A stretch of 64,000 bases of DNA from a virus (IMGVR_UViG_3300021399_000118:1-64000); one strand, 5' to 3'; positions 1,289 to 52,803 are shown, counted from the first letter of the stretch. Notes: a model not told the origin generated them from the sequence alone. A program made the numbers and translations.

Positions 1289-1400
1289 AATCTGCGGGTC
1301 AGGATTTGCACCTGACATGACAGCCTGCCGTTTTCAGTGCTTTATCGGCTGCCCACCACCTTGTTGCTCGCTGTGTCTACCTTTTCCACCACCGCAGATT
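1289..1400 (-). ncRNA. tRNA-like RNA (acceptor, D-arm and UGCAAAU T-arm; no canonical anticodon arm), copy 1
   Basis: AATCTGCGG...CCGCAGATT 9-bp closing stem; TGGTGGAAAAGGTAGACAC D-like arm; GTCAGG-TGCAAAT-CCTGAC T-like arm; homologous to 9936-10052. Confidence 0.65.
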
Positions 1401-3835: not shown

Positions 3836-3837
3836 GC

Positions 3838-9935: not shown

Positions 9936-10052
9936 ATCTGCGGGTAAGGATTTGCACCTTACATGATGAGCCTTTCAGTTATTTAAATAACCTCGGAGAA
10001 AAGTGGCTCAATCTTGCCGTTCTATAGCGTTTACCTTTTCCGCCACCGCAGG
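9936..10052 (-). ncRNA. tRNA-like RNA, copy 2
   Basis: CTGCGG-TGGCGGAAAAGGTAAACGC...GTAAGG-TGCAAAT-CCTTAC-CCGCAG; the middle is a long TGAGCC/GGCTCA stem. Confidence 0.65.
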
Positions 10053-16792: not shown

Positions 16793-17038
16793 ATTACTGC
16801 CTCCTGCTTGTTGTTGGGTCAAGCTCCCATTATATTTGGGCAACCAAGCCTCTTGGGATAGAGGCGCAGCGTTTACTGACGCTTTGCAACTCCCGGCTGA
16901 TTCCGGAAGGTACATTAAAGGAGCGTTAGGCGGCTCAAACCTTTATCGAACTCTCTTGCGGCGATAAACCCGCAAAGCCGCTTGCCACGGCGAGGCCTGC
17001 AATCGAACGTATTGCAGAACGCCTGAGGATGTGTTACA

Positions 17039-17143
17039 CTACTCCTCGGAGACATAGTCGATGTACTCGGCTTCGCTGGCGAACAGCATCCACCGAGACC
17101 CGACCCGGCCCATGAAGCCGTATGCTGTGTAGTACCCGTACAT
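17039..17143 (-). CDS. tiny protein (34 aa, MYGYYTAYGFMGRVGSRWMLFASEAEYIDYVSEE)
   Basis: AAAGGAG RBS; read manually. Confidence 0.7.
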   Translation of the reverse strand: MYGYYTAYGFMGRVGSRWMLFASEAEYIDYVSEE

Positions 17144-17278
17144 GGTTGTCTCCTTTCCGAGCTTCAGTTGCAGCTGAAGCTCTTTTGAATTTGAGTCAAA
17201 GACTCAAAAGAGCACCCGGCGTGCGGGTGCTCTGTCGAATCTGAGCAGTTGTTAATCCGGTTGCTCAGCCGGAACGAG

Positions 17279-35220: not shown

Positions 35221-38200
35221 ATGGCAGACGAAATAGAAGTCAGAATAAAAACCATACTAGATGAAACATCTGTTAAAGATACAAAAAAGGTTCTTGAGGA
35301 AGAATATGAGGATCTTGCAGTTTCTCCAAACACAGATCTTGAAAAACGTCTTATGTCTGTCGGGGAGACGCTTCGAGAGAACGATTTTGATGCAATTATT
35401 CCGGAATTTGGAAGACAGTTTGAAACACAGGTTTCCATTATCAGCCAAAATGTTGCAAGGTTGATGGGTTTATATGATAAAATCGGCCAGGCACAAACAA
35501 AATATGATCGTAAAATTGCTGCTGATAACTTTGTCGCAGCTCAAAAAAGAGCGGCTGTTCAAGTCGCTGATCTTGAAACCGCAATTAATTCCGCTCAGGC
35601 ATTTACATCTTCAATGCCTGCGCATTTAGTAAATCCATTTGCTCAGATGTACCGCAAAGAGAGTCCTTCGATGAGGGCAAACTTTGTCCGAATGTCTTCT
35701 TCGAATGGCTCCGGTTTTATGTATGCAAACGGAGATCAGATGGCCAGGGATTTTGCGAAGGCTTTTTCGTCGCGGCAAGCCCAGGTCGGAACAAACGAAG
35801 AGTTAACTCGATTTATCCAAGAGTACGGATATGATCTTGCTGCGGCGCTGATGCCGATTATGTCAACCGGCTTTAATCGAGAAGATCTTGTCGGGTTTTC
35901 TTTTAATAAAAGAAAAGAAAACCCTGGAAGTATCAGACAGCTTTTACCAAAGGCTTTCCAGGGGCTTAGATTAACACAAACACCCGAATACAGAGCTTTT
36001 AATCACACATCTGAAAAGCTGAGCGAAACAGAACTTCAAGATCTGGAATCTTTTATTCTTTCATCTCAGGATCTGATGGAAGAGTTTGAACTGGCCGGCC
36101 TCGCGCAAAGAAAAAATGGGCGAATAAGGATTAATACAAACGCTACGAGAGAAAATATAGACGCCCTTGGCGGAAGACTTGCTTCTCTTTATGAGGCTGG
36201 GGCAAGAGGCATTTCCACGGATCCGAACGCAGAAATAATCGACGTAAATGATCCAAAATACATCCAACGGATCGCATCCAAGAACAATCGGTCGATGGTC
36301 TCCGCAAACAGAGGAATGCGCATTGCGGAAGAGATGTTTCCGTGGATTGTTCCCTCTTACGTTGAAACTCCGAAAACGGCTGCTTATGATAAAGACATTG
36401 GAAAAATCACAGCTTCTCCAAGATATAAAGCTGGATCTTTTACATTGCTTCCATTTGAAAATGAGGGTGAAGTTGAAAATCTTCCTGTTGTAAACAGCCT
36501 GATACAGCAAAGATTAGCAAAACTTCAAGGGGCAGACAAGTTTGTACACAACGGGAAAAACACAAACGAAATCTATATGAAGATGCCAGTAGAGGCTCTT
36601 CAGGATTTTGAAACAACGCCCGAGATGAGGCAGGAACTTGTTCAAAGAATAGCTGCTCAAATCGGAAGCGTACAGCACGCAAACGGATACGATTATGTAT
36701 TTACAGGGTTTACTGGGACCAACGCTGCTTTTACAAGAAAAGACTTGTATGACCAGGCTATTGCGCTTGACCCGAATTTCTTTACAAACGGTGAGAACCG
36801 AAGAAAATTTTCCGGCCAAGGAGCCGGGGCCGCGTTCGGTCATGCTGTGGATTATATGCAAAAGCAGAGAACGGACGGCGAAGACATTCGGGATTTATAC
36901 GGAACGGATCTAAGCGGAGCGAGAGTCATCGTTGCGGATCTAAAAAAGATTACAGGGCTTGATGGACAGAACTGGATATCGAATGACCTTGTCCCTGCGA
37001 CATTTCAAGGAAGAGATGTTTCCGGAAAATCTACATACAGCGTATTTTCCATGGAAGGATTACGGAGAAAATATGCTTCTCTGATTGATCCTGAAACAGG
37101 AGATCTTGTTTTCGACAAAGGCGGAATCGATGGAGGTGAACTCCGAATCCCGAAAGGCGGAAGCGTCATCCTCGAAGACTGGTCCAACATCAAAGCAAAC
37201 AACCAATACGCCGGGCTGTCTCAAGACGAAGTAAACCAGAAAAGAACTGAAATTGTCCGCAGAGACGGGATCTTTGCAAAGACAACAGCAGACGATGCCG
37301 CTACAAGCGCAAGATACATTTCATCTCAGGCGGCCGCAAGCCTTTCGCTTGACGACAAAGCGAGAGAATATTTCAGAAATGTCTATCTCGAACGTCTTGC
37401 CATGCTTCGAAATGAAGACCAGGTTAAAGAGCTTCTGTTCAGCGGACAGGATGGATTATCGAAAGCTGTCATGTCTGGCGAAGTGTCTATGGATGATCCG
37501 GATGTTCAGGCGCGAATTTTATCTTACCGCCGTGCGTTGACACATAATGTCGGAGAGGGAAACTTGCTTTTGCCTGCGCACATCGGCAAATATGCAATGC
37601 TGCAGGCGTGGCTTCCGGATGTGTTTAATCAGCTTGTCGATGAAAAGAAACTGACCGAAGATATGAAAGCTATGGGGCTGGAAGACGAAGCCATAGAGAA
37701 TTTTGATTATAAGCACAAAATAGCTTATTTTGCGAGCAAGGCTGACGAGCTGATGTCTTTCAGAAACCCTGATACGCTAAGCGGAAACCAAGCAGTTATT
37801 AACAGAGGAGCTGAAGATTTTTTTCAGACGCTTGCAGATGATTTAGGTCTTGACAAGCAAGCCTTATACGCAGATCCAAGATCAGCCATTTTAAGAAAGT
37901 GGCAAACAGCTGACGAAGACGGAGATACTGTCTTCATGAGCGCTCTTCGAGGAAACGGTGTTTTCGGAGAGATTATGGCAAGGGTTCTTGCGAAAACAGC
38001 TGAAGATTACAAGAATCTTATTGAAATGTCCGGGAGAACCCAGGAAGAACAAGAAGCCTACGCTCAAAGTCGGGTTCGCAGCACGGAAATTGACGGGAAA
38101 GAATGGAATCTTAACGATCCTCTTGATATGGCAACCTGGTTTTCTCTTCGTCAACAGCCCGGGGCTAAAATGGGCGCTGCTCATGCGGTTACCGTTGGAG

Positions 38201-41200
38201 CAAAGCAATTTCCTTTAAAAGGCACTTTTGCCAGAGCGCAGCTGGAAGCAGAATCACATTACGATAAAGTATCAAACGGAATCTATAAAAATTTCGAAGA
38301 CTGGGATCAAACGCCAGACGAATGGGAAGTTTTAAAGGGCGGTGCTCCGTTTTTTCGGCTGAATGAATGGCGGAACAAGGCGACACACTTAGCAGAGCTT
38401 CATGGTGCAGGGCAAGATGAAACAAAGGAAAAGCATTTTGATCAGGAATCGTTTAACAAAAAGAAAGTTGACTCAGTAAATTTTGCTTCAATCCATGATC
38501 CGCATGCTCTCGTTGCAGATTTTTCTCAATTTATAGCCGGGCAGGAAGATCCAGAATCTCTGCTGTCAAGCGTTCAGGGTGGAAATTGGGATGAAATCTT
38601 TTCAAATCTTCCTGAAGTATCTAAAAATAAAGAGGTCGCAGCGCTTCAAACAAGGCTTCGTGCTCTTCGGCAAGATAAACTTAACGGAAAGTTTTTAGCC
38701 TTTGACGACAGCGTGGTCCGCGAGTTAGGAGCTCTCTCAGCCAACGCATTGCACGCAATAACCGATGAAGTAAACAAGGATCCTCAATTTGACAGCGATG
38801 CAAAACGTACGGCAGAGATTGTGAGACGCTGGCGAGCAGCCGGAGGCGAAGTCCCAGCACATTTAAAAGAATGGGGTTTAACTCGTTCAAACATTGAAAA
38901 GAACCCTGAACTGAAAGCTGAAGTTCAAAAAGCGATTAACGCCTACGGAGAAGATCGCGTTTACGCAAGAAGCGATGCGGATGTTGGATATGTTTATTAT
39001 ACCCCTGAAGAGATTCAGGCTGACAGGGTTCGCAGAGCACACGACGCAGTCGAAAAGAAAAAGGCGGCTCTCGAACAGGCCAAGCTTGAAAAAGCAAAAG
39101 CTGATCAAGCAATAATCAGCGAAAAGAAGGCAGAAGCAGTAAACACAGAAACAGTTCGTGTCGAGGACGAAACACAAGCAGAAGCCAAGGAGTTAACCGC
39201 AAAAACACCGGAGACGAAACCTCAAGCCGTGTTAAACGAAAATGCCAATCCTCCTTTGGTTAATCCTCCTTCCACGCCAATTACCAATCCTCCTTCTCCG
39301 GCTTCCAGTAAACCTGATTCTGGAGATCACTGGCTCTTAGATAATTTAAGGGCAAGAATAGCAACTGCCAGAGAAATGGCCAAAAAATATCCGGACGACG
39401 ATAAATGGATAAAACAACTTGCAGAAGATGAGCGAATGTTAAAGGAAGCAGAGGAGTCCGGTGACAGAGTAAAGTGGGCCGAAGATCATATTCAAAATGC
39501 TACGGATAGATACAGACAGGAAAAGAAAGCTGATGAAGAATCCGAACTTCAGGCTCGCACAAAAAGAAACGGGGACATTGGACCAGTTAAAACGGAAAAC
39601 GAAGAACATTCGAAAGCTAAACGGAATCAAACTAAAGCATCTAAACCTCAAACAGCTGAACCTGAAGAAAATGATGAAAATATTAGAAGATTGGAAGCCG
39701 AGCTTGCTCAAGCGCAGGCTGAAGAAGAAAGGGAAATAAAAGCACAAAAAAATATTGAGGCGTATATGGCTGATCAGGCGGAGTATAATAGAATATATGC
39801 TTCTGCTCAGGATCTTTCGAATCAGTTCCGGATTAATAAAAGTGCAAAGAGAAACAAAATTGAAGGAAGAAGTCTTGCGGAAGGTTATTTTAACAGGAGT
39901 TACTACGGTGAATTTCGGCCACTGGATAGAGAAATAGCAGATTATATTAAAAATCATCCAGAAATGGATCCTAGCCAAACGGTTGCGCTGAATCAATTAA
40001 TCGCCCAAGCCAGGGGTGATATGTTTGAAGATTTTGCCAACAAAGGAACTCTTTTTGCCAAAGAATATGCCGACGATGTCGAAACAGAACTTAAAGGCAT
40101 AACAAATCCCGCGTCTAAACAGAAAAAAGTATTAGACAACTACACGAAGACGGCTGAGGAAGCTCAAAAGTTTATTGAGCAAATCGATAAAGTATTAAGC
40201 GATCCGAAGATAAAAAAAGATGATTCCAGTAGAAAAGCTTTAGAAAAGGCAAAAGAAAATATCAGTGCGTCGATTCAGCAAGGGAGTGCATTTCAGAGAG
40301 AGCTTGCGGAGCAATACAAAAAAGAAAATAACGAAAACGCTCTTTTAAGAACCGAAGATCTGAAGGCGAAATACAATAAGAATTATAAAAAGAGCGGAAA
40401 TTATCAGGCGATTCTTCGGAACAGAGAGATTGACGCGCTTCAAAAAGATTTAGATCAGCAGCAAAGAGAAGGATTGATCGGAGAAGACTCTTACAGCAAA
40501 GCATCTGAAGATCTTTCAAAGATGCGAGCGGATGCTGTTGGCTGGAAAATCGATATGACGGAAGGCCTCCAGAGCGTTGGTAAACTTGCATCGGAAACCG
40601 CTTCGAAAATGGTTCGGCAGTTTGGCCGGCAAATGTGGCAATCTGCGATAAACGAAACCAAGAAGTTTGTTCAGGAATACGACAAGAGCATGACCACTAT
40701 TCAGATGATCACACTTAAGTCGGACGACGAGATAAAGAGTCTTGGAACCGGATTGATCGGAAAAGCCAAGACGATGAAAATGACTGTTGGAGATGTTACG
40801 TCCACGGCAGAAAGTCTGTATCGTCAAGGGCTCACAGATTCTGAGGTAAACAGTCGGCTGGATACGATTCTTAAATTTTCTGCTGTGTCAGGGACTAAAG
40901 CGGAAGACGCCACAAAACTGATTACAACCGCAATGAACACGGGTCTGGTCAGCGGCGCACAAGAAGCAGCAGATATTGTAACTGCCTTGGGAGACAGTGC
41001 CGCTACTAACGCCGCCCAAATAGAGAAAGGCATTGAAAAAGCCGGTGCAGCCGCGGCTGTCGATGGAACGAGTTTTGCTGAGCTTGCGGCGATGCTTACG
41101 GCCATTACCGCAACCACACAGCTGACAGGCAATGTTGCTGGAACAACGATGAACTCTATTTTCGGAAGGATGAATAAAATCGGAACGAATGAGCTCATCG

Positions 41201-44200
41201 AGGACGAAAATGGTAATAAGATCAGCGCTTCTGCTATTGCTACGCTTTTGAGAGAACAGGGGATTCAAACCCATATTAACGGAGAAAAACGATCTTCCTT
41301 CGACATCCTGAAGGAGCTTTCGACCAAATGGCAAAGTTTGTCCGACGCAGAACAGCAACGACTTTCTACGGCCATTGCCGGAACAAGGCAATACTCCAAC
41401 TTCTCAGCTATTATGCTTGGTATGGCAGAAGGAAATATCGATCAATATCTTGATACTGCCGGAGAATCTGAAGGAATCGTTGACAAGAAATATGAAGTTT
41501 ACACAAGAAGCCTCGAAGCCGCATTAAACGATCTGAAAACAACCTGGGACAGCCTTGTTGCAGGAATACAAGAAAACGATATTGCAACCGGACTTGTCGA
41601 CGGACTGACTTCCTTATTGAGTGGTTTTAGCAATATTCAGTCTCAAGCAGGAAGTGTTGTTTCAGCTCTAATTTTAATCGCCGGTGCGATTTCTGCGATT
41701 GGTGTTGCCTCAGCCGCTGCAAAGCTGCCCGGATTTATTCCTAAACTTTTAGGAATTGCAGCAGGCGCAGCCGTCGTTGGCGGCGCAAGCTTGCTTGCGA
41801 ACCAATTTAAAGACATTGGAACTCAAAAAAATAAAAACGATAGTCCAGAAGCACTTATAGAAAAAAATGAAACCTTCAAAGCGAACGCTGCGGATCAAAG
41901 CAAATATTATCAAAACTTAATTGATGAGACAAACATCTTGGCAAAAAAGATAAAAGAGGGCACAGCAACAGGACGAGAAAGCAGCGATTTTGCATCAAAT
42001 GTTAATTTGCTTGGGGCGTCGTTTGAAAGTGTTGGTGCTTCTATTAACAGTGCAACAAGCGCTCTTGAAGGATGGGAATCTGCTTCAAGCCTTGCCCAGA
42101 ACGCTGCAGATGAAATAGCTGAAGCCAATAAAAAGATTATTCGCTCGAACGAAGAAGTTATCAGACAGAATATCAGAGAGAAGGCTCAGAAAGATTTTAA
42201 AGAAGCTTCAGTTAACAACGGATTCTCGAAAACCGGATTGGATCTACTTCAAACTCTTGAGACATACAGGCAAGGAAATGTTGATCGTTTCGAAGTCGAT
42301 GCTCGTTTGAGACAAATGGGCCTGGGTCTTGGGGAAGGCGTGTCCGACGCAAACGCACTAGCGTTCTACGACGTTTACAGTTTTACACAAGGAAACTCCG
42401 ATAATCCGTTCAAAGGAAGAGAATTAACGACAAAAGCTCTTCTTAGCCTTGCTGGCACAATTTTTACAAACAGAGGCGCAAGCGCAATCAGCAAAGCTCT
42501 CGGAGAAGGAGGAGCGACTGAGCTGGGGACGCTGTTTGAAGATTCTGATTCTTTTGTGGCAGCATTTCAAAACGGATTTAAAGACACCGAGCTCTCCTTT
42601 GCGACATATCAAAATCTTATTTCGCTAATTGGATCTATTATATCTGGCAACGCACCAGATGGTATTAAGTCTCTCATAGAGTTGTCGCAAGAAAATCCGG
42701 AAGAAAGAAAAATCATAGAGCGGGCAATCGATGATCAACTGGCAAATACTGATCAATATGCAAGCCTTGGATCCGAGGCAAAAGAGATTATTAGGAAAAA
42801 AGCAAAATCTTACGCGTCTGGCCTGTCTCTTGATGATGCCTATAATTTTGCGATTGGTGACAGGAAAGACCTTGAGGCATTTATCTTAAGTGAATCGAAA
42901 GAAGCTGCGAACAATCCGAATTACGTAGAAGAAGCCAAAAAAACTGGAACATATGTTCCTGTTTCCATTTCGGAATCTGTTGCAGCAGCATATTCTGCAC
43001 TTACGGGAAAGAACAGAAAATACGATACAGAATACCAGGCGCTGCTTTCTGATGTTGTTGCCGCCAGCGCCTCAGAGAACCCGATTGAGGCTTTAAAATC
43101 TTTAGAATCAAGCCGGCATAGTGCGATCGTCGGAAGTGAAGACGCCGAACTGTTAAAGATCTGGAATGATGTAAACGAAAATAATGGCCAAGGCGTTTAC
43201 AGCGTTGGAGATCTCAGAACTTACCTTGAAAACAAGGTATTTAGCTCTACTCCTGCGGCGAGAAAGCAAGGCAATCTGAATACCGCTTACAATCTTTCTC
43301 AGGCGAACGACTTGCTTCAGCGGCTCGCATCCAACGACAGAAGTCACGAAGCCCTGACACAGCTTGCTTCTATGACTGGTCTGGACATCGAACAAGTTCT
43401 CGCGAATCAGGAAAACGCTATTTCTCTTGCACAAGATTTACAGAATCAAAATGTTGAATCTTATCTGTCCAAAATAAGATCTGATGTAGACAAGGAATTC
43501 GGAGAAGAACTGAAAGATCCAAATAAACGCAACAAAGATCTTCAAGACAGAATTAACAAATCGCTTCAAGGAACAGGAGTAAGTCTTAAATCTTTTGACG
43601 AAAACGGAAATCCTGTTTACGAACATGATTTTACTTCTGTTAATCGTCGCGCAGGAGTTATGGATTATTCGACTCAGTACACCAACGCAGAGCTGATGGG
43701 TTATGCTAAACAGCTGGCTGAAAATGGTGGCACCTGGAACGAAATGTTTGCTACAGGCGGAACTTATCATGACTGGTCTAACGAACAGATCAACGCAGTC
43801 GCATCCTACTCCCCTGCCCTTGCCAGATATTTAAAGATGAGCGCCGATCAGAGAGCGTCCGCAGAAGGTCAGGCACTGAAACAGCAATACGAAATTCAGT
43901 TTAAAACAGAGGGCCTTGGAACCCTTGAACAAGCTGGGAACATTCTTCAGGGAACGGCCAGCCTTGTTGAGCGATTAAATCAGAACGGCACGATCAAGCT
44001 TAAAGCAGAATATGAAATAGCAAGTAATGCAACTGAGCGGCTGCAAAGAACTGCCATGCTAAACAACGGATCTTTAGCTGAACAGACTCAAGCCGTTTCT
44101 GAAATTACTGGCAGATCTGCAAGCGAGATTCAAACCAACTTTACGGCCTACAAGCAAGAAGCGCAGGAATACATTGCAGCTGAACGCGCCGCAACAAAGT

Positions 44201-47200
44201 CTTCTTATCAGAATCTTTACGAAAAAGCAGATTCTGAAGACGTACAAGAATACATTAAAAATCAAGCCGCGCGGGAAGGATTCATTTTAGAAGACGATGA
44301 AACCGAAGGAGCGAACGGCAAAAAAGTCTTCGTTGATCGCGGAGCTTCCAATGACTACAACTATCATGAAAATGCATTTCTCGGATCTTCCAGAAGCTAT
44401 ACAGACCTGGAACTTGCAAACGCAAGAAACGATATAATTCATGGTAAATTATCGACCAAGGCTGGAGACTATGAACTATATCGTGCGGCTTCTGCTTCTG
44501 GCGGCCGATATTTCCAGGAATACAACCGGATGCTTGCAGAGAATTCTATCAGTCCGAGGACGTATTCCAGGAAGGAAATGCGAGAAGCTAAGCGCCGGAT
44601 GGTGCAGGAAGAGGAGCTTGCCCGGAGGGACGCGGAAGAATCCCAAGCTCTTGAAGACGCAAAGCTCGCGTCTGGGACGCTTTTCGGAGCTCAGAATTAT
44701 GCAAGAGTTCGCTATGAACAAAACAACAAAACCGGATTGGCTGCGGATGCTGTATACCAAGCGCTCAACAGTGTCGATACGACAGAAGCCACCTGGATTG
44801 AATCTTTAAAAAATGTTTTATCCAATGAAAATAACAAGCAAAATATAATCGATTTAATAAACTCTTCTGACGCGGCTGCAAAAGCGATAGAAGATGCCGG
44901 GATCGCGTTTAATGAAGATGGCTCAATCAACCTTGACAGACTAACTTCTTCTGCGAACGGTGGCGCTTCTACTTTAGCTGCGCTCATGCAGAATGTTGCA
45001 GGCTTAAGCACTGGATACAGCGATCTGCAAGAAGTATTAACAGCTCAAGAAACAGGGAAACGTGCTCAGCAAGCTTTTAATAATCTTCAAAAAGGATACT
45101 TCATTTCTCAAGGAATGGCAGAGCAAGTCTATGATCAGGAAAGAAGGTCCGCAGAAGAAGAAATAAGAAACGAGCTTGCTCGTTCTGATCAATATAAAGA
45201 CAGCAGCGAAGAAGAAATCAATCGGCTTGTTGACGATCAACTTAAAAACAAAGGTCTTGCAAGTCTCAATGATTATCTGGAAAAAGAGCAAAAGGGAATT
45301 CTGGAAGATCAGGATTATGATTACCTGAAGACCGTGCTTGGAGAAGGATTGTCTCAAAAAGCATTGTCTAAAAGTCTCAACGAAGAAGAAACATCTTTAG
45401 CCAACACGCTTCTTGAAAATGCGGCTTACGGCTACAATGGATTGTCTGCCTCGCAAAGACTCGAAGGCATTAAAGAAATCGGGGGCAGGATCGCAAATAA
45501 TACCCTTACCGGCTACAGCTCTTATGCGGCAGATCAATATATGTCCGGCTGGTCTGGATGGCCGAGATTTTCTCAACTTCAGCAACAGCTTGAAGAGAAT
45601 GGAAAACTTGAAGGTGCGGATTTACAAGAGTATCAAGCCTTAAGTGCAGAATTTGAAAATCTTCAGAAAAACGCCGAGATTGAGATTAAGATTCAAGGTC
45701 TTGCAGAGCTCGAGGAAGCCGGGAAAATAATTCAAGGTACAGCTGACACGGTCAAGCAGCTTCAAAAAGGCGGAAGTTTTGAAATTCAAGCAAGGGTTAA
45801 GCTTGTTTCAGACCTTTATTCTGAAGCTCAGCTCGACGCCATGTTAAACAGTGGAAACGCCAATCTTGTTAATCAAGCTGCTCAACAAATAACAGGCGTA
45901 TCCGGAACACAATACAATGAAAACAGAGATTATTGGATCCAGCAAGCTCAGGCTATGCGGTCTACGAGAAGGACTCAAACAGCTGAAAGCTTGATGAAAG
46001 ATTACAATGCTGCTCAGGATAAAGAAGCTTTCCTTGCTTCGCTTGAAGGAGCCGGATGGAGTCTGCAAGGGTCTGTTTTCGATAAAGTTGCAACAGCAAA
46101 TTATCAAGAATCTGGTATTGTTCCGGAAGGATTTACAAGAAGAGGAAACAGATTATATCGTGATCCTGCGTTTGTTTACAATCAGGAAGATTACAAGTTT
46201 GACAATCCCTATGTTAACGCTGAAAAGAACTATACAGACGCTGAGCTCTTGCGGATGCGGAGACAAATTCAGAACGGCACGTTAACTGAAGGTATGACCG
46301 GATACGAAACAGCTTTCCGCAGCGGTGGGACAGAATGGGCTGAGTACCAGAGACTGCTTGCAAATCTTCCAAAGGAAGAGGAACGTACAGAAAAACAAAG
46401 AAAATCTCTCGAGGCTCAAAGGCAGAGAATGCTGCGCGAAGAGAGTCTTTCTGAAAGAGACATCCTGGAAACGGAAGAACTTGAAAACGCCCGGCTCCAA
46501 TCTGGTTCTCTTGGTGGAATGTTCAGTTATGCTCAGCTTCAGTATCAACAGAACAATAGAGCAGGCATGGCGGCCAATGCGCTTTATGAAACCCTGTCCG
46601 GAGCTAAAGTTGAGAGCGTAGATGATTTACTTGGAATCCTTGGAGACGAAAAGAATGCTCAAAACTGGAAGGATCTTATTGAGTCTTCTCCAGAGTTAAC
46701 AAAGAAGTTTAACGATCTCGGGATCACAATGGATAAAAATGGTCAATGGGACGTTTCCGGGCTTCAGGGAAGCGCAGACGCTGCGGCTGGAGCATTGTCT
46801 GCTTTAGCTCAAATTGTGGCCTCTACTTCCGCGGAATACAACAAAAGACAAGAAGTATATTCTACCGGTGAAAAATATTCTATGGCCTCAAGATATCTTT
46901 CTGGAGATATCACAGATGAAGAAGCGCAATATGCCGCACTTGAAGAAGTCATTGGAAATAGCGCTGCCGCTCAGCAGATTCGAAATTATAACGAAGATTA
47001 TACTGCAAGGTCAAACAGATGGCTTGCCGGGTATAACGAGGCTCTGGAATCCAGAGACCCAAATGCTGCTGAAAGATATTTAAGAGAAAATCCAAATCCC
47101 GCCAATGAAGAATATGATCCTTTAAGCGTGTTTAGCCCTGAAGAGCGAAGCGATGTAGAGATGATGATGACCAACGCCAAATATGGCGGGTCGTCTTTGA

Positions 47201-50200
47201 CTGAAGTACAACAATATAATAAACTTCAGGATATTTATGCAGCCGCTCAGAACGGTGGACTCGCGCAATATATGAACGAAGATACACTTGGATTATATAA
47301 TCAAGTCGGATCTTCTATTGAAGGATTTGGAGAGTGGGCTGCCGCAGTTCAAAGCATTCAAGAAGCTGGATTAAGTTTATCTGATTTTTCTGAAAGTTCA
47401 GAAGATTTTAAAACAGCCATTGAAAAATCTGGATCTTCAATGGGGCGCTTTGCTGAAATTAATAAGTCGATGAACGCGGAAATCAGAGCAAGAGGAATTG
47501 AGACCATGCGCAAATATGGGCAATCCTCTTCTGATGTTGCAAATTATCTCCGTGCGATGGCTAAAGGAGGCAAAGAAGCTTCTAATGCGCAGGCTCAGCT
47601 CAGACAAAAATTGTCTCAGTGGAACAACGCTGCGAATGCAATAAAAAAGGCCGAAGGGAAAAGCGGAAAACAGTTAGCAGATAAAGACGTCGCTGATCTT
47701 TCTGCTATCACAGGAGAGGATTCCAATCTGATCAAAGAGATGACAAAAGAACAGATTGAGAATCTAAGACAAAATGCTCAAGGAATTATCGACGAAGGTT
47801 TTGTGAATGAACTTGGTGGAATAATTACTGAGCAGTTAAACCAGCATTTTGCAAATAATCCTGTCGCATTTGATATGGCCGTCAAAGCAGACGTTAATGG
47901 AGACGGAGCGCTTGATTTAAGCGAAATTGCAACTATTGCTCAAGAACTGAGAGATCAAGGCCTGGCAGAGCTTGCTGCTTATGCGGGGTTAATCGGAACA
48001 CTGCTTGTCAACGTTACAAAGAGTGGAAATTCCGCAACGGCAATCGCAGAAGTTGTCGAAGGTTCTGTTAACGGATCCGGCAAGCGAACTGGCGGTGGCG
48101 GCGGAGGAGGCGGTGGCGGTAAGTCCGCAGTCGATCAACTCCTTGAACGCCAAAAACACGAGATAGCTCAACAGCAACATGAAATCAAGATGTCTCAGAT
48201 TCAGGAAGCTCATTATGAGCGACTGAACGATTATGATAACTATCTCAGCTCCCTTGACGAAGAAATTGAAAAGCAAACAGAACTATACAATATATACCAA
48301 CGGCATCTCAAAGAACTAATCGAGATGCAAAATGGTCTGGAAAAATATTCCGATGACTGGTGGAAATTACAGGAGCAAATCAACAGTTCCACAGAAGCCG
48401 CAGAGGAATATCTTGATACTGTTGCAGAAATTAACGCTAAAAAGATTACTGCCACTCAAACCAAGCAGGAAAACGAAGATAAACCCGGCTCTCACAGGAC
48501 AACCATGTTTGAAAAACGTGCCCAGTACTATATGGATAGAGGGCAGTTTGAAAACTATGCGGTGCTCGTCGAGAAGGAAGTTGCCCAGATGCGGGCGGAC
48601 ATTGCCTTAAACGATAAGCAGATCACAGAATGGGAAGGAATGCTTACTCAGTATGAGGAGAATTCCAAGGAATGGATCGAAGTCAGAGATAAGATCTGGG
48701 CAACAAAAGAAGAGAACGCTGACCTGGAGAACCAGGCGTTCGAAAGAATTTCTGAACTTCAACAGCAAAGAATCTCTCAGATCCAAACTGATTATCAGAA
48801 TGGCGTTGCACCGATCGAACATGAGCAGAATATGCTCGGCATCTGGGGAAGCATTTATCAAAACGCCGGCCGGTCTGTATATTACGACGAAGAAGGCAAC
48901 CAGCACACCATGCAGGAAGCCTACAGGAATACCCTGGATCAGGACACCGCTTACAACGAACAGACTCTTACCAGGATCCGGTCAACGATCAAACTTCTTC
49001 AGGAACAAATGGCAACTCTCGATGAAGGGACTGAGGCCTGGTATGCAGCCCGGGACGCGATCTATCAATACGAAGAGCAGGAAGCTCAGCTTGTCGCAAA
49101 GAATCAGGAAAACGACATTGCGAAAGAAGAATCCTACGTTACCGAGCTGACGGATAAACGAGAAGCCCGCACCAAGGAGCTTGAGCATGAGCTCAACATG
49201 ATCGAAACCATCCAGGAAAGATTTGAAAACAGCAACGATTACGAGAACTCTGAGAATATGATGGAGGAGCGGCGGGCCAAGCTCGAAGAAATGAGAGAAC
49301 AGGCTGCCAGGAATCTGGAAGAAGCTCAGGCCCTGTTAAACAGCGGAAAGCTCGATCCAGGCGGAGACAGATATAAAACGGTCCGAGACGACGTTATGCA
49401 GCTGACCGAGGAATACGAGAAGCTGACAAACGAAGTTGAGAACGCCGACCGGAAGATTCAGGAAACCAAACTGGAGCATATCCTGGAGAAGTTCGAAAAT
49501 CAGGACGGGCTGATCCAGCATCAGTTAAAGCTTGTTCAGTATGAACAGACCCGCTACCAGAACAGCGGAGAGTTAACCAACTACGGAACGATGCTGGAAA
49601 TCGAGAACGACCTGCAGAGAGACCGGGCTGAACTGCTGAAAGAACAGATCGGGTTACTGGAGGAACAGCTCGAAGCGGCTGAACCTGGCTCCGACACATA
49701 CCAGAAGATCACCAAAGAAATTTATAAGATGGAAGAGTCCCTGGCCTCTGTCAATAACACGATCGAGAAGAACAACGAAGCGATCCGAAAGAACCAGGAG
49801 AATATTGTCAAGACTCGGAAAGCTTTAATTGACATGATCGATCGCGAGATCAAAACAAGGGTTAAGGAACAGAGAGACCGGCTGAACGCTGAAGTCTCCA
49901 TTCAGAATCAGATCCTCAACATCATCCGCAACAGATATAAACAGGAATGGGCTATCGTCAAAGCTGATATCGACAAGAAAAAGCAGGCCCTTCAGGAGGA
50001 GAAGGCGTTAATCAACGAAAGGCTGAACGCCAGGATCAACGCGGAGAAGGAAGAGGAAAGATACACCAAGCTTTCTGAGCTTCAGAGACAGCTTACCTTA
50101 ATTTCGGCCGATCCTACCAGAACAAAGGACGCGATTGAACTTCAGCGGCAGATCGACGATCTCTTAAAAGAGATTGCCAACGAAACTGCTCAACAAGAGG

Positions 50201-51573
50201 CCAACGCGGCCGGAGAACAGCTGGACGATCAGATCAAAGCCTACGACGCGTATGCTCAATACACCGAGGAAGCTTTGAACGAAATGCTGAAGGACGCCAA
50301 CAGCACAGAACTTTTCGAAGAATTGAACGCTGTTATGGGTGACGAAAGTATGTCCAGGGAAGAGCGGCTTGAAAATTACATGAACTGGATCAAAGAAAAT
50401 GACGATAACTATAAGTTCGGCACCGAAGCCATGCGGCTACAGCTCGAACAGAACAACACGGACTCCTGGAACAAGATGCTTGGATTCGTGGATACTTACT
50501 GGGATCAGGTAGAGGATATCATCAGCGGCGGGGCTCAAAGCATTATTGATTACATGAAGGAAAGCTCCTCTTACATCTGGAATTCCGATGCTGGGCAGAG
50601 GCTGCTTGAACTGCAGTGGAACGATACCTATGATAAATACGTTAAATCTACGATTGACGACGCTGTATTCAACGATATTCACGAGCTTGCGGAATATGCT
50701 TCTCAGCTTCAGGACTATACCTATAAAGTAGAGCTGACGCCGGAATCCATTTACAGGCTTGGGATTTACGACAGCGAGTTAAAGTATCAATACGAGAGAG
50801 ATAAGAGTGTAAGTGATGAAGCTAAGAATTACGATCCGAACGATATGTACAAAGATGTCGGGAAGAAAGTTGTTCCTGTCGCAAATACGGGATATACAGC
50901 TGAGTATTCCAGCAATGTAAACTCAGGAGGAAACGGTGGTTCGAACGGAAAAGGAAAGACAAAATATAACTTTACTTTAACGGACGACGCTTCAGGTCAA
51001 GTGCATCATCTTACGTTAGAGGCATCTTCTCAGTTAGAAGCTCTGGAGAAGATGCAGAGTTATGTTTATGAAATGGCTCAAAAACGCAAAGACGCATCAA
51101 ATCCAGGAACATCGTATACAGGACAACTCACAGACAAAAAATGGAATGGAATCAAAGATACAGAATATACGGCGTTTACCGATTATGAAGCTGCTCTTGC
51201 TTTTGAAAAGAATCTTGAGCGGCTTAAAAGAAGTGGTATGAGCGCCTATGCTTCCGGCGGTCTTGTTGATTACACCGGCCCGGCATGGGTTGACGGAACT
51301 CCTACCAGACCCGAAGCTTTCCTTGACGCAACCGACACAGAAAATATTCGTGCCATGCTGGATGCGCTTAACTATGTGCCAACGATGCCTATGCTCTCCC
51401 CTTCCGAGAAGTTCTTCGGGAACAGCTCTACCGTGGGAGACATCAACATCGTGATCAACCAGGCCGAGCTGAAGAGCGACGCGGATTATAACGAAGTCGC
51501 AAGGAGGGTCGGACAGGCCTTTACCAAGCAGCTTTCCAAGGATGGCTTCCAATTATCAGGATATAACTGGTAA
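35221..51573 (+). CDS. giant tape measure protein (5450 aa) with an N-terminal RNA polymerase domain
   Basis: Located between the tail chaperones and Dit; TMP core about 40650-41600 (LYRQGL, LGDSAATNAAQI..GI.KAG, AGT.Q...F); C-terminal YASGGLVDYTGPAWVDGT..PEAFL; RNAP motifs at 36670-38300. Confidence 0.9.
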   Translation: MADEIEVRIKTILDETSVKDTKKVLEEEYEDLAVSPNTDLEKRLMSVGETLRENDFDAIIPEFGRQFETQVSIISQNVARLMGLYDKIGQAQTKYDRKIAADNFVAAQKRAAVQVADLETAINSAQAFTSSMPAHLVNPFAQMYRKESPSMRANFVRMSSSNGSGFMYANGDQMARDFAKAFSSRQAQVGTNEELTRFIQEYGYDLAAALMPIMSTGFNREDLVGFSFNKRKENPGSIRQLLPKAFQGLRLTQTPEYRAFNHTSEKLSETELQDLESFILSSQDLMEEFELAGLAQRKNGRIRINTNATRENIDALGGRLASLYEAGARGISTDPNAEIIDVNDPKYIQRIASKNNRSMVSANRGMRIAEEMFPWIVPSYVETPKTAAYDKDIGKITASPRYKAGSFTLLPFENEGEVENLPVVNSLIQQRLAKLQGADKFVHNGKNTNEIYMKMPVEALQDFETTPEMRQELVQRIAAQIGSVQHANGYDYVFTGFTGTNAAFTRKDLYDQAIALDPNFFTNGENRRKFSGQGAGAAFGHAVDYMQKQRTDGEDIRDLYGTDLSGARVIVADLKKITGLDGQNWISNDLVPATFQGRDVSGKSTYSVFSMEGLRRKYASLIDPETGDLVFDKGGIDGGELRIPKGGSVILEDWSNIKANNQYAGLSQDEVNQKRTEIVRRDGIFAKTTADDAATSARYISSQAAASLSLDDKAREYFRNVYLERLAMLRNEDQVKELLFSGQDGLSKAVMSGEVSMDDPDVQARILSYRRALTHNVGEGNLLLPAHIGKYAMLQAWLPDVFNQLVDEKKLTEDMKAMGLEDEAIENFDYKHKIAYFASKADELMSFRNPDTLSGNQAVINRGAEDFFQTLADDLGLDKQALYADPRSAILRKWQTADEDGDTVFMSALRGNGVFGEIMARVLAKTAEDYKNLIEMSGRTQEEQEAYAQSRVRSTEIDGKEWNLNDPLDMATWFSLRQQPGAKMGAAHAVTVGAKQFPLKGTFARAQLEAESHYDKVSNGIYKNFEDWDQTPDEWEVLKGGAPFFRLNEWRNKATHLAELHGAGQDETKEKHFDQESFNKKKVDSVNFASIHDPHALVADFSQFIAGQEDPESLLSSVQGGNWDEIFSNLPEVSKNKEVAALQTRLRALRQDKLNGKFLAFDDSVVRELGALSANALHAITDEVNKDPQFDSDAKRTAEIVRRWRAAGGEVPAHLKEWGLTRSNIEKNPELKAEVQKAINAYGEDRVYARSDADVGYVYYTPEEIQADRVRRAHDAVEKKKAALEQAKLEKAKADQAIISEKKAEAVNTETVRVEDETQAEAKELTAKTPETKPQAVLNENANPPLVNPPSTPITNPPSPASSKPDSGDHWLLDNLRARIATAREMAKKYPDDDKWIKQLAEDERMLKEAEESGDRVKWAEDHIQNATDRYRQEKKADEESELQARTKRNGDIGPVKTENEEHSKAKRNQTKASKPQTAEPEENDENIRRLEAELAQAQAEEEREIKAQKNIEAYMADQAEYNRIYASAQDLSNQFRINKSAKRNKIEGRSLAEGYFNRSYYGEFRPLDREIADYIKNHPEMDPSQTVALNQLIAQARGDMFEDFANKGTLFAKEYADDVETELKGITNPASKQKKVLDNYTKTAEEAQKFIEQIDKVLSDPKIKKDDSSRKALEKAKENISASIQQGSAFQRELAEQYKKENNENALLRTEDLKAKYNKNYKKSGNYQAILRNREIDALQKDLDQQQREGLIGEDSYSKASEDLSKMRADAVGWKIDMTEGLQSVGKLASETASKMVRQFGRQMWQSAINETKKFVQEYDKSMTTIQMITLKSDDEIKSLGTGLIGKAKTMKMTVGDVTSTAESLYRQGLTDSEVNSRLDTILKFSAVSGTKAEDATKLITTAMNTGLVSGAQEAADIVTALGDSAATNAAQIEKGIEKAGAAAAVDGTSFAELAAMLTAITATTQLTGNVAGTTMNSIFGRMNKIGTNELIEDENGNKISASAIATLLREQGIQTHINGEKRSSFDILKELSTKWQSLSDAEQQRLSTAIAGTRQYSNFSAIMLGMAEGNIDQYLDTAGESEGIVDKKYEVYTRSLEAALNDLKTTWDSLVAGIQENDIATGLVDGLTSLLSGFSNIQSQAGSVVSALILIAGAISAIGVASAAAKLPGFIPKLLGIAAGAAVVGGASLLANQFKDIGTQKNKNDSPEALIEKNETFKANAADQSKYYQNLIDETNILAKKIKEGTATGRESSDFASNVNLLGASFESVGASINSATSALEGWESASSLAQNAADEIAEANKKIIRSNEEVIRQNIREKAQKDFKEASVNNGFSKTGLDLLQTLETYRQGNVDRFEVDARLRQMGLGLGEGVSDANALAFYDVYSFTQGNSDNPFKGRELTTKALLSLAGTIFTNRGASAISKALGEGGATELGTLFEDSDSFVAAFQNGFKDTELSFATYQNLISLIGSIISGNAPDGIKSLIELSQENPEERKIIERAIDDQLANTDQYASLGSEAKEIIRKKAKSYASGLSLDDAYNFAIGDRKDLEAFILSESKEAANNPNYVEEAKKTGTYVPVSISESVAAAYSALTGKNRKYDTEYQALLSDVVAASASENPIEALKSLESSRHSAIVGSEDAELLKIWNDVNENNGQGVYSVGDLRTYLENKVFSSTPAARKQGNLNTAYNLSQANDLLQRLASNDRSHEALTQLASMTGLDIEQVLANQENAISLAQDLQNQNVESYLSKIRSDVDKEFGEELKDPNKRNKDLQDRINKSLQGTGVSLKSFDENGNPVYEHDFTSVNRRAGVMDYSTQYTNAELMGYAKQLAENGGTWNEMFATGGTYHDWSNEQINAVASYSPALARYLKMSADQRASAEGQALKQQYEIQFKTEGLGTLEQAGNILQGTASLVERLNQNGTIKLKAEYEIASNATERLQRTAMLNNGSLAEQTQAVSEITGRSASEIQTNFTAYKQEAQEYIAAERAATKSSYQNLYEKADSEDVQEYIKNQAAREGFILEDDETEGANGKKVFVDRGASNDYNYHENAFLGSSRSYTDLELANARNDIIHGKLSTKAGDYELYRAASASGGRYFQEYNRMLAENSISPRTYSRKEMREAKRRMVQEEELARRDAEESQALEDAKLASGTLFGAQNYARVRYEQNNKTGLAADAVYQALNSVDTTEATWIESLKNVLSNENNKQNIIDLINSSDAAAKAIEDAGIAFNEDGSINLDRLTSSANGGASTLAALMQNVAGLSTGYSDLQEVLTAQETGKRAQQAFNNLQKGYFISQGMAEQVYDQERRSAEEEIRNELARSDQYKDSSEEEINRLVDDQLKNKGLASLNDYLEKEQKGILEDQDYDYLKTVLGEGLSQKALSKSLNEEETSLANTLLENAAYGYNGLSASQRLEGIKEIGGRIANNTLTGYSSYAADQYMSGWSGWPRFSQLQQQLEENGKLEGADLQEYQALSAEFENLQKNAEIEIKIQGLAELEEAGKIIQGTADTVKQLQKGGSFEIQARVKLVSDLYSEAQLDAMLNSGNANLVNQAAQQITGVSGTQYNENRDYWIQQAQAMRSTRRTQTAESLMKDYNAAQDKEAFLASLEGAGWSLQGSVFDKVATANYQESGIVPEGFTRRGNRLYRDPAFVYNQEDYKFDNPYVNAEKNYTDAELLRMRRQIQNGTLTEGMTGYETAFRSGGTEWAEYQRLLANLPKEEERTEKQRKSLEAQRQRMLREESLSERDILETEELENARLQSGSLGGMFSYAQLQYQQNNRAGMAANALYETLSGAKVESVDDLLGILGDEKNAQNWKDLIESSPELTKKFNDLGITMDKNGQWDVSGLQGSADAAAGALSALAQIVASTSAEYNKRQEVYSTGEKYSMASRYLSGDITDEEAQYAALEEVIGNSAAAQQIRNYNEDYTARSNRWLAGYNEALESRDPNAAERYLRENPNPANEEYDPLSVFSPEERSDVEMMMTNAKYGGSSLTEVQQYNKLQDIYAAAQNGGLAQYMNEDTLGLYNQVGSSIEGFGEWAAAVQSIQEAGLSLSDFSESSEDFKTAIEKSGSSMGRFAEINKSMNAEIRARGIETMRKYGQSSSDVANYLRAMAKGGKEASNAQAQLRQKLSQWNNAANAIKKAEGKSGKQLADKDVADLSAITGEDSNLIKEMTKEQIENLRQNAQGIIDEGFVNELGGIITEQLNQHFANNPVAFDMAVKADVNGDGALDLSEIATIAQELRDQGLAELAAYAGLIGTLLVNVTKSGNSATAIAEVVEGSVNGSGKRTGGGGGGGGGGKSAVDQLLERQKHEIAQQQHEIKMSQIQEAHYERLNDYDNYLSSLDEEIEKQTELYNIYQRHLKELIEMQNGLEKYSDDWWKLQEQINSSTEAAEEYLDTVAEINAKKITATQTKQENEDKPGSHRTTMFEKRAQYYMDRGQFENYAVLVEKEVAQMRADIALNDKQITEWEGMLTQYEENSKEWIEVRDKIWATKEENADLENQAFERISELQQQRISQIQTDYQNGVAPIEHEQNMLGIWGSIYQNAGRSVYYDEEGNQHTMQEAYRNTLDQDTAYNEQTLTRIRSTIKLLQEQMATLDEGTEAWYAARDAIYQYEEQEAQLVAKNQENDIAKEESYVTELTDKREARTKELEHELNMIETIQERFENSNDYENSENMMEERRAKLEEMREQAARNLEEAQALLNSGKLDPGGDRYKTVRDDVMQLTEEYEKLTNEVENADRKIQETKLEHILEKFENQDGLIQHQLKLVQYEQTRYQNSGELTNYGTMLEIENDLQRDRAELLKEQIGLLEEQLEAAEPGSDTYQKITKEIYKMEESLASVNNTIEKNNEAIRKNQENIVKTRKALIDMIDREIKTRVKEQRDRLNAEVSIQNQILNIIRNRYKQEWAIVKADIDKKKQALQEEKALINERLNARINAEKEEERYTKLSELQRQLTLISADPTRTKDAIELQRQIDDLLKEIANETAQQEANAAGEQLDDQIKAYDAYAQYTEEALNEMLKDANSTELFEELNAVMGDESMSREERLENYMNWIKENDDNYKFGTEAMRLQLEQNNTDSWNKMLGFVDTYWDQVEDIISGGAQSIIDYMKESSSYIWNSDAGQRLLELQWNDTYDKYVKSTIDDAVFNDIHELAEYASQLQDYTYKVELTPESIYRLGIYDSELKYQYERDKSVSDEAKNYDPNDMYKDVGKKVVPVANTGYTAEYSSNVNSGGNGGSNGKGKTKYNFTLTDDASGQVHHLTLEASSQLEALEKMQSYVYEMAQKRKDASNPGTSYTGQLTDKKWNGIKDTEYTAFTDYEAALAFEKNLERLKRSGMSAYASGGLVDYTGPAWVDGTPTRPEAFLDATDTENIRAMLDALNYVPTMPMLSPSEKFFGNSSTVGDINIVINQAELKSDADYNEVARRVGQAFTKQLSKDGFQLSGYNW
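36670..38300 (+). other. two-barrel RNAP domain within the TMP (putative virion RNAP)
   Basis: LDGQNW (D581), FQGRDVSGK (R598/K603), ILEDWSNIK, YISSQAAASL, G..AWLPD, FRNP (R848), ADEDGD (D898; 37912-37926), colinear with the 14369-16792 protein. Confidence 0.8.
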
Positions 51574-51702: not shown

Positions 51703-52803
51703 ATGGCTGGCGGATTTACATATCGCGGAATCGACATCGCAACTATCGGGCTGGAATACGCTCCCGAGCTGGAAGACACCTACGTTTACAAAACAGCAAA
51801 ACCCAGAATCCACGAGGAAACCTTTGATGGGCACGACGGCGGGTACTACTACGGCACCTCCAGAGAGCCCAAAGAATTTGTTTTAAGATGCTTTTTTGAA
51901 CAAAGAGACATCGACCGGGGCATTATGGCTCGAATCTATTCTCTCTTCCGGGAAGGCAGCACTGGGCGGCTCATCTTCGACCGAAGACCGTGGTGCTATT
52001 ACTACGCGACCGTGACTGAACTGGACACAACCGGCCTGACCAACTACAACAGTGGCACCATCCGGATTGTTATGAAGGCCTACTATCCTTACGCCCGGGC
52101 TGACCAGATGACGGTCAAACCCCAGGACAAGGACTACTACAGGATACTTGAAAACACCGCATTCTTCGAAAACGAAGAAATGGTTCCTCCTGTCATGTTT
52201 TGCCAGGACGGGCCGATTACGGAAACGACCGAAATCCTTTTGTCCAACCCCGGCTCAGAATACGCACCAGTTGGAATTGAGATCGCCGGAAACGTGGGCA
52301 GAGGAGTGGTCATCACCAATGAAACCACAAACCAGGTCTGCAAGTTTGTCGCTATGTCCGAAGAGGAATTTGATGGAGAGATGAACTTTGTATATCTCGA
52401 CGGGCTGAACGGCAAAACCATGGCGGTCAAGGATGACTTCAAGACAACAGCCTTCCTCTATCACGACGAAGGCTTTATTACTTTGGCTCCCGGATTCCCG
52501 GCCAACCGGAAAATCTTCGTCACAACCTACGACGGAGTTCCCAAAGTAACGGGAAAGATCTACGACCGGTTCAGCACAGACAGAAAGACCGCAGAAGACG
52601 TATACGTCGGACAGCACATCTGGCTTGGCGGCTGGCATGAAATTACAGGCGTTCCGGACGAACAAACCTTTGAACTGAAGACACATCCGGAATATTTCAA
52701 CGGGAAAACCATGATTACCCGGCTCAACAAGATCAAAATCGAGCCGGTATCGGAAATGAAACTTGCACGGCTTAAATTTGTATATAAGCCAACATTCGCA
52801 TAA
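51703..52803 (+). CDS. distal tail protein (Dit)
   Basis: GFTYRG...G.DG.YYYG...GRLIFD.RP..YYYA...YYPYA; N.G..Y; follows the TMP gene. Confidence 0.85.
   Translation: MAGGFTYRGIDIATIGLEYAPELEDTYVYKTAKPRIHEETFDGHDGGYYYGTSREPKEFVLRCFFEQRDIDRGIMARIYSLFREGSTGRLIFDRRPWCYYYATVTELDTTGLTNYNSGTIRIVMKAYYPYARADQMTVKPQDKDYYRILENTAFFENEEMVPPVMFCQDGPITETTEILLSNPGSEYAPVGIEIAGNVGRGVVITNETTNQVCKFVAMSEEEFDGEMNFVYLDGLNGKTMAVKDDFKTTAFLYHDEGFITLAPGFPANRKIFVTTYDGVPKVTGKIYDRFSTDRKTAEDVYVGQHIWLGGWHEITGVPDEQTFELKTHPEYFNGKTMITRLNKIKIEPVSEMKLARLKFVYKPTFA

Follow-up and report, generated by a model that had tools for sequence, protein, structure and literature searches.

Phage phi14:2, which is crAss-like, and phage N4 deliver an RNA polymerase (RNAP) with the virion, and it serves the earliest genes. 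The enzymes, gp66 and vRNAP respectively, are fused to large proteins and pass along the short tails of podoviruses as internal virion proteins in their own right, not as parts of a tape measure; gp66 has a two-barrel core, and N4 vRNAP is T7-like rather than two-barrel. In the Thermus phage P23-45 the virion RNAP is instead embedded in the tape measure protein (TMP). Residues 327–1124 of the 5,002-aa TMP gp96 form an active RNAP (DFDGD at 779), an N-terminal fragment of gp96 is detected in virions, and the enzyme transcribes the pre-early genes, including that of the non-virion RNAP gp64 (PMC10770324). Specific promoters and a defined pre-early gene set are known for this phage, gp96 has membrane domains, and transcription is proposed to be concomitant with DNA translocation (Chaban et al. 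2024, Nat Commun 15:317, PMC10770324). The gp96 system also covers phages P74-26, G20c and TSP4, and TMP-delivered RNAP has so far been demonstrated experimentally only in this one small group of Thermus phages. The YonO enzyme of the Bacillus prophage SPbeta, by comparison, occurs free in the cytoplasm, measures ~100 kDa, has 14 Cys and serves to transcribe late genes (Forrest et al. 2017, Nat Commun 8:15774, PMC5467207). Here we describe a giant TMP that almost certainly carries a YonO-related RNAP near its N-terminus. It is encoded in the viral metagenome record IMGVR_UViG_3300021399_000118 (120,915 bp), the first 64 kb of which form the window that we analysed. A sequence-only reading of this window, made before the searches reported here, had proposed the fusion and had rightly pointed to P23-45 as combining a TMP-fused virion RNAP with a non-virion RNAP (PMC10770324).

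The fusion occupies one uninterrupted open reading frame (ORF), with no stop across 16.35 kb. By its domain matches and its gene neighbourhood the product is a bona fide TMP. Seven PHROG tape-measure families match the ORF (best E 4.9e-37), and the genes for terminase, portal and major capsid protein lie upstream on the same strand. The gene for the distal tail protein (Dit) comes directly after the TMP gene, which confirms the tail-gene slot. RNAP domain and tape measure are joined in a single polypeptide in that slot, as in gp96. The parts of the gene are as follows.

35221..51573 (+): giant TMP ORF, 5,450 aa, zero Cys, with the ribosome-binding site GAGGTG 8 nt before the ATG
35221..36429 (+): N-terminal leader, aa 1–403, predicted helical bundle plus small alpha/beta part
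36430..38622 (+): predicted two-barrel single-chain RNAP core, aa ~404–1134, from hhalign, AlphaFold2 (AF2), Foldseek and the structural search VIA
36961..37029 (+): first-barrel (beta-like) motif D581-G582...Q596-G597-R598...K603 (FQGRxxxGK), aligned with DG..R....K of the YonO family
37192–37194 (+): K658, beyond the first-barrel motif, kept in 35/35 representatives
37762..37770 (+): R848-N-P850, the RxP motif at the entry to the second barrel, aligned to TRNP of the free RNAP r1
37912..37926 (+): putative metal-binding motif D898-E-D900-G-D902 (DxDGD) of the second (beta-prime-like) barrel, all three Asp kept in 35/35 representatives
39241..39318 (+): Pro-rich low-complexity linker, aa 1341–1366
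40738..41382 (+): canonical tape-measure core, PF10145 PhageMin_Tail, aa 1840–2054, Pfam E 2e-22
41641..41802 (+): two hydrophobic, membrane-span-like segments, aa 2141–2169 and 2175–2194, from a Kyte-Doolittle scan
44497–45804 and 46321–47601 (+): internal duplication in the TMP body, aa 3093–3528 and 3701–4127, 28% identity, BLASTP E 1.4e-28 over 464 columns
48091..48120 (+): Gly10 homorepeat, aa 4291–4300, a Gly run also present in the family consensus
51703..52803 (+): Dit, the next gene after the TMP gene, phrog_33 E 3.8e-17

Between the Pro-rich linker and the tape-measure core lies a helical stretch rich in charge (36–38% DEKR) that reaches ~aa 1750, and the duplicated unit in the TMP body is ~430 aa long.

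This layout closely parallels gp96. Both proteins are giant TMPs (5,450 aa here, 5,002 aa in gp96) with a two-barrel RNAP core of ~750 aa near the N-terminus behind a leader of 300–400 aa (core 404–1134 with DEDGD at 898 here, to be set beside 327–1124 with DFDGD at 779). Both have hydrophobic segments further on, both lack Cys entirely, and the core fold is common to the two (Z 11.7). As in P23-45, the free RNAPs are encoded on a divergent leftward arm. The present phage differs in having two free RNAPs where P23-45 has one, and in being temperate with an integrase, mesophilic and from the ruminant gut. Unlike in gp96, a Pfam search found no metallopeptidase domain in this TMP.

Profile comparison ties the fused module to the YonO family. 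We aligned a profile of 35 TMP N-terminal modules (cluster representatives) with a 24-sequence YonO-family profile using hhalign, and the family homology is statistically significant. The local alignment pairs TMP 416–907 with RNAP 12–467 (probability 97.5%, E 5.7e-12, 424 columns), and the global alignment extends over TMP 404–1134 and RNAP 1–807 (98.8%). Against YonO alone the module profile gave E 3.5e-7. Identity between module and YonO in the profile alignment is ~16%, and the first-barrel R/K motifs, RxP and DxDGD are colinear between the two. Other sequence searches did not reach this relationship. Pairwise BLASTP of TMP 1–1400 against the 807-aa free RNAP of the same phage (14369..16792, minus strand; hereafter r1) did not reach significance (best E 1.0); the pair by itself gives no basis for scoring the resemblance. 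Searches of TMP aa 1–1400 in Pfam, PHROGs and PDB sequences, both as a single sequence and as a 7-sequence profile, returned nothing relevant, and the Pfam RdRP family PF05183 had no match in the fused module at E <= 1.

The profile alignment largely bears out a comparison that the sequence-only reading had made by eye. It had paired nine motifs of the TMP with nine of r1, in order along both proteins. The TMP motifs stand at residues 486 (HANGYDYVF), 558 (DLYGTDLS), 650 (ILEDWSNIK), 699 (YISSQAAASL), 780 (GNLLLP), 797 (WLPD), 847 (FRNP), 897 (ADEDGDTV) and 983 (KMG), and the partner motifs are all present in r1. Eight of the nine pairs align as proposed. The ninth, KMG with EIG, lacks support: EIG falls opposite ~TMP 913 rather than 983, in the low-confidence C-terminal half of the global alignment. 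Two boundaries could also be compared. The Pro-rich linker, placed near 39240–39310 by eye, lies at 39241–39318. Homology to the YonO family begins at ~aa 404–416, so the region upstream of the polymerase, previously put at ~480 aa, is in fact a leader of ~400 aa.

The predicted structure leads to the same family of enzymes. An AF2 model of TMP residues 400–1140, built on a 28-sequence alignment, has a predicted local distance difference test score (pLDDT) of 88 and a predicted template-modelling score (pTM) of 0.86. Foldseek against the PDB matched it best to QDE-1 (E 1.1e-11), RDR2 (3.6e-9) and P74-26 gp62 (3.2e-3), and more weakly to crAss-like gp66 (6vr4, E 1.3e-2) and P23-45 gp64 (3.4e-2), followed by cellular RNAP beta-prime subunits. 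Independently of this, an all-against-all structural search (VIA) of 48,161 chains again placed QDE-1 at the top (7y7p_A, Z 19.5 over 538 residues, root-mean-square deviation 4.6, model residues 2–717). Maize RDR2 came next (Z 17.1), then gp62 (15.9); over all VIA comparisons RDR2 scores 17–19, gp62 15.9–16.1 and gp64 15.9. The five best rows among the 48,161 chains are all single-chain two-barrel RNAPs, and the next match has Z 8.8. The gp96 virion RNAP entries 8h2n and 8h2m scored Z 11.7 over 382–392 residues, and crAss-like gp66 (6vr4) Z 7.6 over 539 residues. Model residues ~385–540, the second barrel, match isolated double-psi beta-barrels as well as the beta-prime barrels of cellular RNAPs.

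Two double-psi beta-barrels with DxDGD were what the sequence-only reading had expected AlphaFold and Foldseek to reveal, and the top rank of QDE-1 together with the second-barrel matches agrees with it. We conclude that residues ~404–1134 are, with near certainty, a true two-barrel RNAP fused to a TMP. Its profile and its model place the module in the YonO/QDE-1 clade of single-chain two-barrel RNAPs. The best structural matches, QDE-1 and RDR2 (7y7p_A Z 19.5; 7w82 Z 19.0), are RNA-dependent RNA polymerases of eukaryotic RNAi, cellular RNA-templated enzymes with 10–12% identity to the module, a relationship at the level of fold only that implies nothing about template preference. SPbeta YonO belongs to the same clade, and the genome described here also encodes a YonO-like free enzyme (r2, below). 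The module differs from the free, cytoplasmic, Cys-bearing SPbeta enzyme in being embedded in a TMP, devoid of Cys and without a PF05183 match.

The active site looks intact across a divergent family. A HMMER search of 1.84 billion representatives found 64 clusters with homologues of the module. About 30 of these are giant proteins (3,700–6,000 aa) that share the N-terminal ~1,200 residues, and the remainder are shorter sequences, for the most part truncated. Where a member covers the site, it nearly always has DxDGD, usually DFDGD, at ~residue 900–1050. Seventeen positions are invariant in 35/35 representatives, down to ~24% identity: N444, G561, G582, R598, K603, K658, Q703, F740, G780, P785, R848, P850, N861, D878, D898, D900 and D902. 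D581 is kept in 30 of the 35, with N in the other five. The last three of the invariant residues are the catalytic Asp triad that had been called intact from the single sequence. The conserved residues probably bind metal and substrate, and their retention in all 35 divergent representatives points to selection on catalysis and not on shape. The module is predicted to be catalytically competent, with an intact-looking active site.

The module had no counterpart, as DNA or as protein, in 50,697 phage records; tblastn of aa 394–1060 against them stayed empty up to E <= 10. No relative emerged either when one genome per prokaryote species was scanned for the pattern, but a motif scan of this kind can miss prophages, so that result is no evidence of absence.

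Independent assemblies support the fusion itself. In an independent sheep-gut run, a contig of 3,974 bp spans 36379–40352, from the RNAP core through the linker into the charged stretch before the TMP core; it aligns without gaps and has 129 substitutions. The sole difference shown by a bovine-gut relative over this region is an in-frame 24-nt deletion at 39278, inside the Pro-rich linker; such an in-frame length polymorphism fits a flexible spacer under little sequence constraint. The same architecture recurs in ~30 clusters drawn from ENA, Logan and JGI assemblies. An assembly chimera at the junction, which the sequence-only reading had named as a risk, does not account for these observations.

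The fused polymerase also differs from its free relatives in composition. There is no Cys in the entire 5,450-aa TMP. Across the family, the first 1,300 residues are Cys-free in 33/35 representatives, and the other two, which are short and contig-truncated, have one each. The free paralogue families have a median of 17.5 Cys (range 10–25) and 27 Cys (range 14–34), and other genes of the phage encode proteins with 0.6–3.8% Cys. P23-45 gp96 likewise has none. A Cys-free module beside Cys-bearing free paralogues fits a virion-borne, translocated protein. We infer that Cys loss reflects selection against disulfides in a protein that is outside the cell and passes a narrow channel, probably unfolded.

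The genome encodes three related RNAPs, not the two that had been proposed. The two free enzymes are listed here.

14369..16792 (−): free YonO-type RNAP r1, 807 aa, DYDGD, 14 Cys, first large gene of the leftward arm
112632–115454 of the record, outside the window (−): second free YonO-type RNAP r2, 940 aa, DWDGD, 27 Cys

Both are recognisable members of the YonO family. For r1, PF05183 gives E 1.8e-8 and phrog_8308 E 1.7e-77, and it shares 28% identity with SPbeta yonO (tblastn E 9e-48, BLASTP E 1.5e-54). The second enzyme, r2, is closer to SPbeta YonO, with 33% identity over the full length (E 1.6e-129), and has more than 1,200 metagenomic relatives. All five related viral records with the fused module carry an r1-type enzyme, and the three more complete ones an r2-type enzyme as well.

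The relationships among the three argue against a recent origin of the fused copy. The sequence-only reading had suggested a duplication of the free gene into the TMP that was still visible by eye. In profile comparison, the r1 and r2 families match each other at E 4.7e-51, whereas the TMP module matches them only distantly, at E 3.3e-6 (r1) and 4.8e-3 (r2), or 4.5e-5 with SPbeta added. Since r1 and r2 are much closer to each other than to the module, any duplication either predates the split of the free YonO enzymes or was followed by very fast divergence. These profile scores place the fused enzyme beside the entire YonO family, as its distant sister.

The likeness to gp96 in architecture is not matched by likeness in sequence. 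BLASTP of the full-length TMP against gp96 gave no match at E <= 1. An hhalign comparison of the family profile with gp96 1–1250 reached E 0.2, and that of the leaders E 0.54, with sensitivity limited by the single-sequence targets; against gp64, also a single sequence, the only match was a 16-column stretch around DxDGD (E 0.066). The module groups with YonO by profile, and structurally it is nearer to QDE-1, RDR2 and gp62/gp64 than to the "flat, clampless" gp96. The gp96 score (Z 11.7 over 382–392 residues) is below those of gp62 (15.9) and QDE-1 (19.5), though the gp96 crystals are partly disordered. With no detectable sequence similarity to gp96 and a weaker structural match to it, either the fusion arose independently or it is a very old one, and the independent origin that the sequence-only reading had floated is plausible. 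The module appears to work like gp96 without being a member of the gp96 sequence family. A YonO-type TMP fusion is unmentioned in the main text and supplements of PMC10770324, and we found no article containing both the title phrase of that paper and YonO.

How might the fused polymerase act? We put the probability of the full delivery-and-early-transcription reading at roughly 0.7; its delivery steps are modelled on P23-45 gp96 and on what TMPs do. The fused RNAP would be assembled into the virion tail as part of the TMP and, at infection, would be ejected along that tail. Because the N-terminus is the end nearest the head, the polymerase would come out last, just ahead of the DNA. It would then refold in or close to the membrane channel that the TMP forms and transcribe the first-entering DNA independently of host RNAP. 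The free YonO-type enzymes r1 and r2 would take over from there; of the two, r2 is the better candidate for the late enzyme, judged by SPbeta YonO. Such a staged, largely self-contained three-polymerase programme is the likely use of the three enzymes.

Several points weigh against this reading. A folded polymerase of ~80 kDa (an estimate) should not fit the lumen of the tail tube, so packaging would require that it be unfolded or extended, or housed outside the tube. We found no repeated promoter-like motif that would link the module to a set of genes. PF05183 detects both r1 and r2 and not the fused module, and the half of the module after DxDGD aligns poorly to YonO, so accessory elements may differ. 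The evidence for the fused family consists of metagenome proteins.

A more far-reaching version specifies both origin and order: a widespread group of temperate phages from ruminant and other animal guts would have acquired the TMP-fused RNAP independently of the Thermus phages, from the YonO lineage, and would run a cascade from the injected enzyme to r1 and then to r2 as the late enzyme. We advance this tentatively and would not bet on it. If it were true, infection, and perhaps prophage induction, would be largely independent of host RNAP. On its way along a tail close to a micrometre in length the polymerase would be unfolded, which would explain the complete lack of Cys, and the cascade would go with an r1 gene that has no host-type promoter. 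At 0.15 nm per helical residue, the estimated tail length is ~0.6 µm with the body alone as ruler and ~0.8 µm with all 5,450 residues.

The rival closest to delivery and early transcription keeps the fused polymerase active and injected and makes its task mainly mechanical. Anchored in the channel, the enzyme would pull the ~121-kb genome out of the long tail by transcribing it, with gene expression secondary. Genome entry in T7 is driven by transcription; here the polymerase is tethered to a channel-forming protein, and a 5,450-aa ruler goes with a very long tail. The proposal by Chaban et al. that transcription is concomitant with DNA translocation points the same way (PMC10770324). Pulling of this sort is compatible with delivery and early transcription and may be part of it. 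P23-45, however, shows specific promoters and a defined pre-early set and not generic pulling (PMC10770324), and we regard a chiefly mechanical role as improbable.

A polyprotein would need no passage through the tail at all. Cleavage at the Pro-rich linker would release the RNAP inside the producing cell, where it would act as a free, non-virion enzyme, for example a late one, and only the C-terminal ~4,000 aa would enter the tail. The flexible, length-variable linker between module and body would suit such a cut, and the misfit between a folded polymerase and the tail tube would cease to matter. Yet the phage already has two free YonO-type enzymes, and a purely cytoplasmic enzyme would not need to be Cys-free, as the module is in 33/35 representatives, unlike its cytoplasmic paralogues. 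The N-terminal fragment of gp96, moreover, is detected in P23-45 virions. A polyprotein is in our judgement a long shot.

The module could instead be an exapted, catalytically dead relic that now serves only as a structural element of the tape measure's head-proximal end, as the missing Pfam RdRP match and the strong divergence from the free enzymes might suggest; but all the expected metal- and substrate-binding residues are kept in 35/35 divergent representatives, which makes a relic very unlikely. That the fusion is artefactual, through chimeric assembly, an overlooked stop or frameshift, or read-through of an intron-split gene, can practically be dismissed even for a window from a metagenome assembly, given the absence of a stop over 16.35 kb, the independent-run contig that bridges 36379–40352 and the recurrence of the architecture in ~30 clusters from ENA, Logan and JGI assemblies.

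Delivery of an RNAP by a tape measure may extend well beyond the Thermus phages. The same architecture occurs here in a temperate ruminant-gut phage, with a polymerase and a tape measure that lack detectable sequence similarity to gp96. The fusion is either very old or of more than one origin, and in both cases it would count as a general strategy and not a curiosity. In the present family gp96 would gain a mesophilic counterpart, and promoter specificity and temporal control can be compared among the three related polymerases of a single genome. That the fused copy alone has lost its Cys gives a hint of how a large enzyme might get through the tail tube. For annotation, the first ~1,100 residues of such giant TMP genes in this family should not be counted as ruler without evidence.

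The leader in front of the polymerase is a conserved part of the family. AF2 models aa 1–403 with pLDDT 83.4 as a helical bundle (aa ~15–215) and a small alpha/beta part. P243 is invariant in the family, and F246, L267, E271, G300, G330 and N356 are near-invariant. Foldseek gave no match to the leader at E <= 0.001, a VIA-wide search gave generic helical bundles only (Z <= 9.9), and an ESM Atlas search gave only unnamed or TMP-like clusters (~0.9). A role in promoter recognition, which the sequence-only reading had raised, is possible but unsupported. The first 326 residues of gp96 are dispensable for activity (PMC10770324).

The genome around the fusion fits a temperate phage. The record holds a tyrosine integrase, a lysin with NlpC/P60 and SH3_3 domains, a primase-helicase and a retron-type reverse transcriptase, so the phage is temperate and Firmicutes-type in appearance. 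The observations that bear on a possible SPbeta-like affiliation are a YonO-like gene, the tyrosine integrase, the NlpC/P60+SH3_3 lysin and a record of at least 120.9 kb. The public runs that hold the phage or close relatives are sheep and bovine gut metagenomes, with no RNA run listed among them. We take it to be a likely temperate, Firmicutes-type, very long-tailed siphovirus from ruminant guts.

The leftward arm, with r1 as its first large gene, diverges from the structural arm at ~17.7 kb. The region upstream of r1 has one listed feature.

16793..17260 (−): structured leader of r1, ~450 nt, with the terminator hairpin of the preceding gene at ~17231–17200

We found no sigma-70-type promoter on the r1 strand upstream of r1; the rightward arm has two strong ones. 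The block TTGCCCAAATAT (16843–16832), ~40 nt upstream of the r1 start, occurs once in the genome, and four related phages largely retain it in the form TTGCTCAAATAT or TTTACCAAAA. We regard it as no more than a candidate promoter at which a phage polymerase might start. A search for exact 12–16-mers repeated in the genome, made as a promoter hunt, found none. The only word enriched in intergenic sequence was considered as a promoter and set aside: it led to a conserved hairpin that does not lie upstream of r1.

The r1 leader also contains a small ORF of 34 codons (MYGYYTAYGF...SEE) at 17037–17141 (−). At this position related phages carry another small ORF, which likewise ends in acidic residues.

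A 26-nt hairpin element, TGCGGGTNNGGATTTGCACCNNACAT, is present in four copies, at 1293–1318 (+), 9939–9964 (+), 89888–89913 and 90719–90744 of the record. All copies are intergenic and on the strand opposite the leftward-arm genes, with a 6-bp stem and the invariant loop ATTTGCA. Two copies have compensatory double changes in the stem (GTCAGG/CCTGAC and GTAGGG/CCCTAC), and the related phages G002, G004 and G005 have 2–6 copies of this type with further compensatory variants. The hairpin may be regulatory, for example a promoter, terminator or processing site for a phage polymerase.

Immediately before the TMP gene, between it and the tail genes, a 659-aa gene runs antisense (33139–35118, −), with 3.8% Cys and a GC content of ~0.38. 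It has a strong sigma-70-like promoter of its own (TTGACT-17-TATAAT, 35195–35167) and a terminator with a 12-bp stem (33104–33075). Searches of Pfam, PHROG and PADLOC assigned it to no family; the nearest signal was a sub-threshold match to a cold-shock domain (E 0.005, 17 bits). Contigs of related strains diverge at ~35000–35035, so this gene looks like a strain-variable moron cassette.

The reverse transcriptase gene (115751–116887, −) lies outside the window and adjoins r2. Its product matches RVT_1 at E 4e-23 and, in PADLOC, scores best against the retron-type RT_II-A (E 7e-48).

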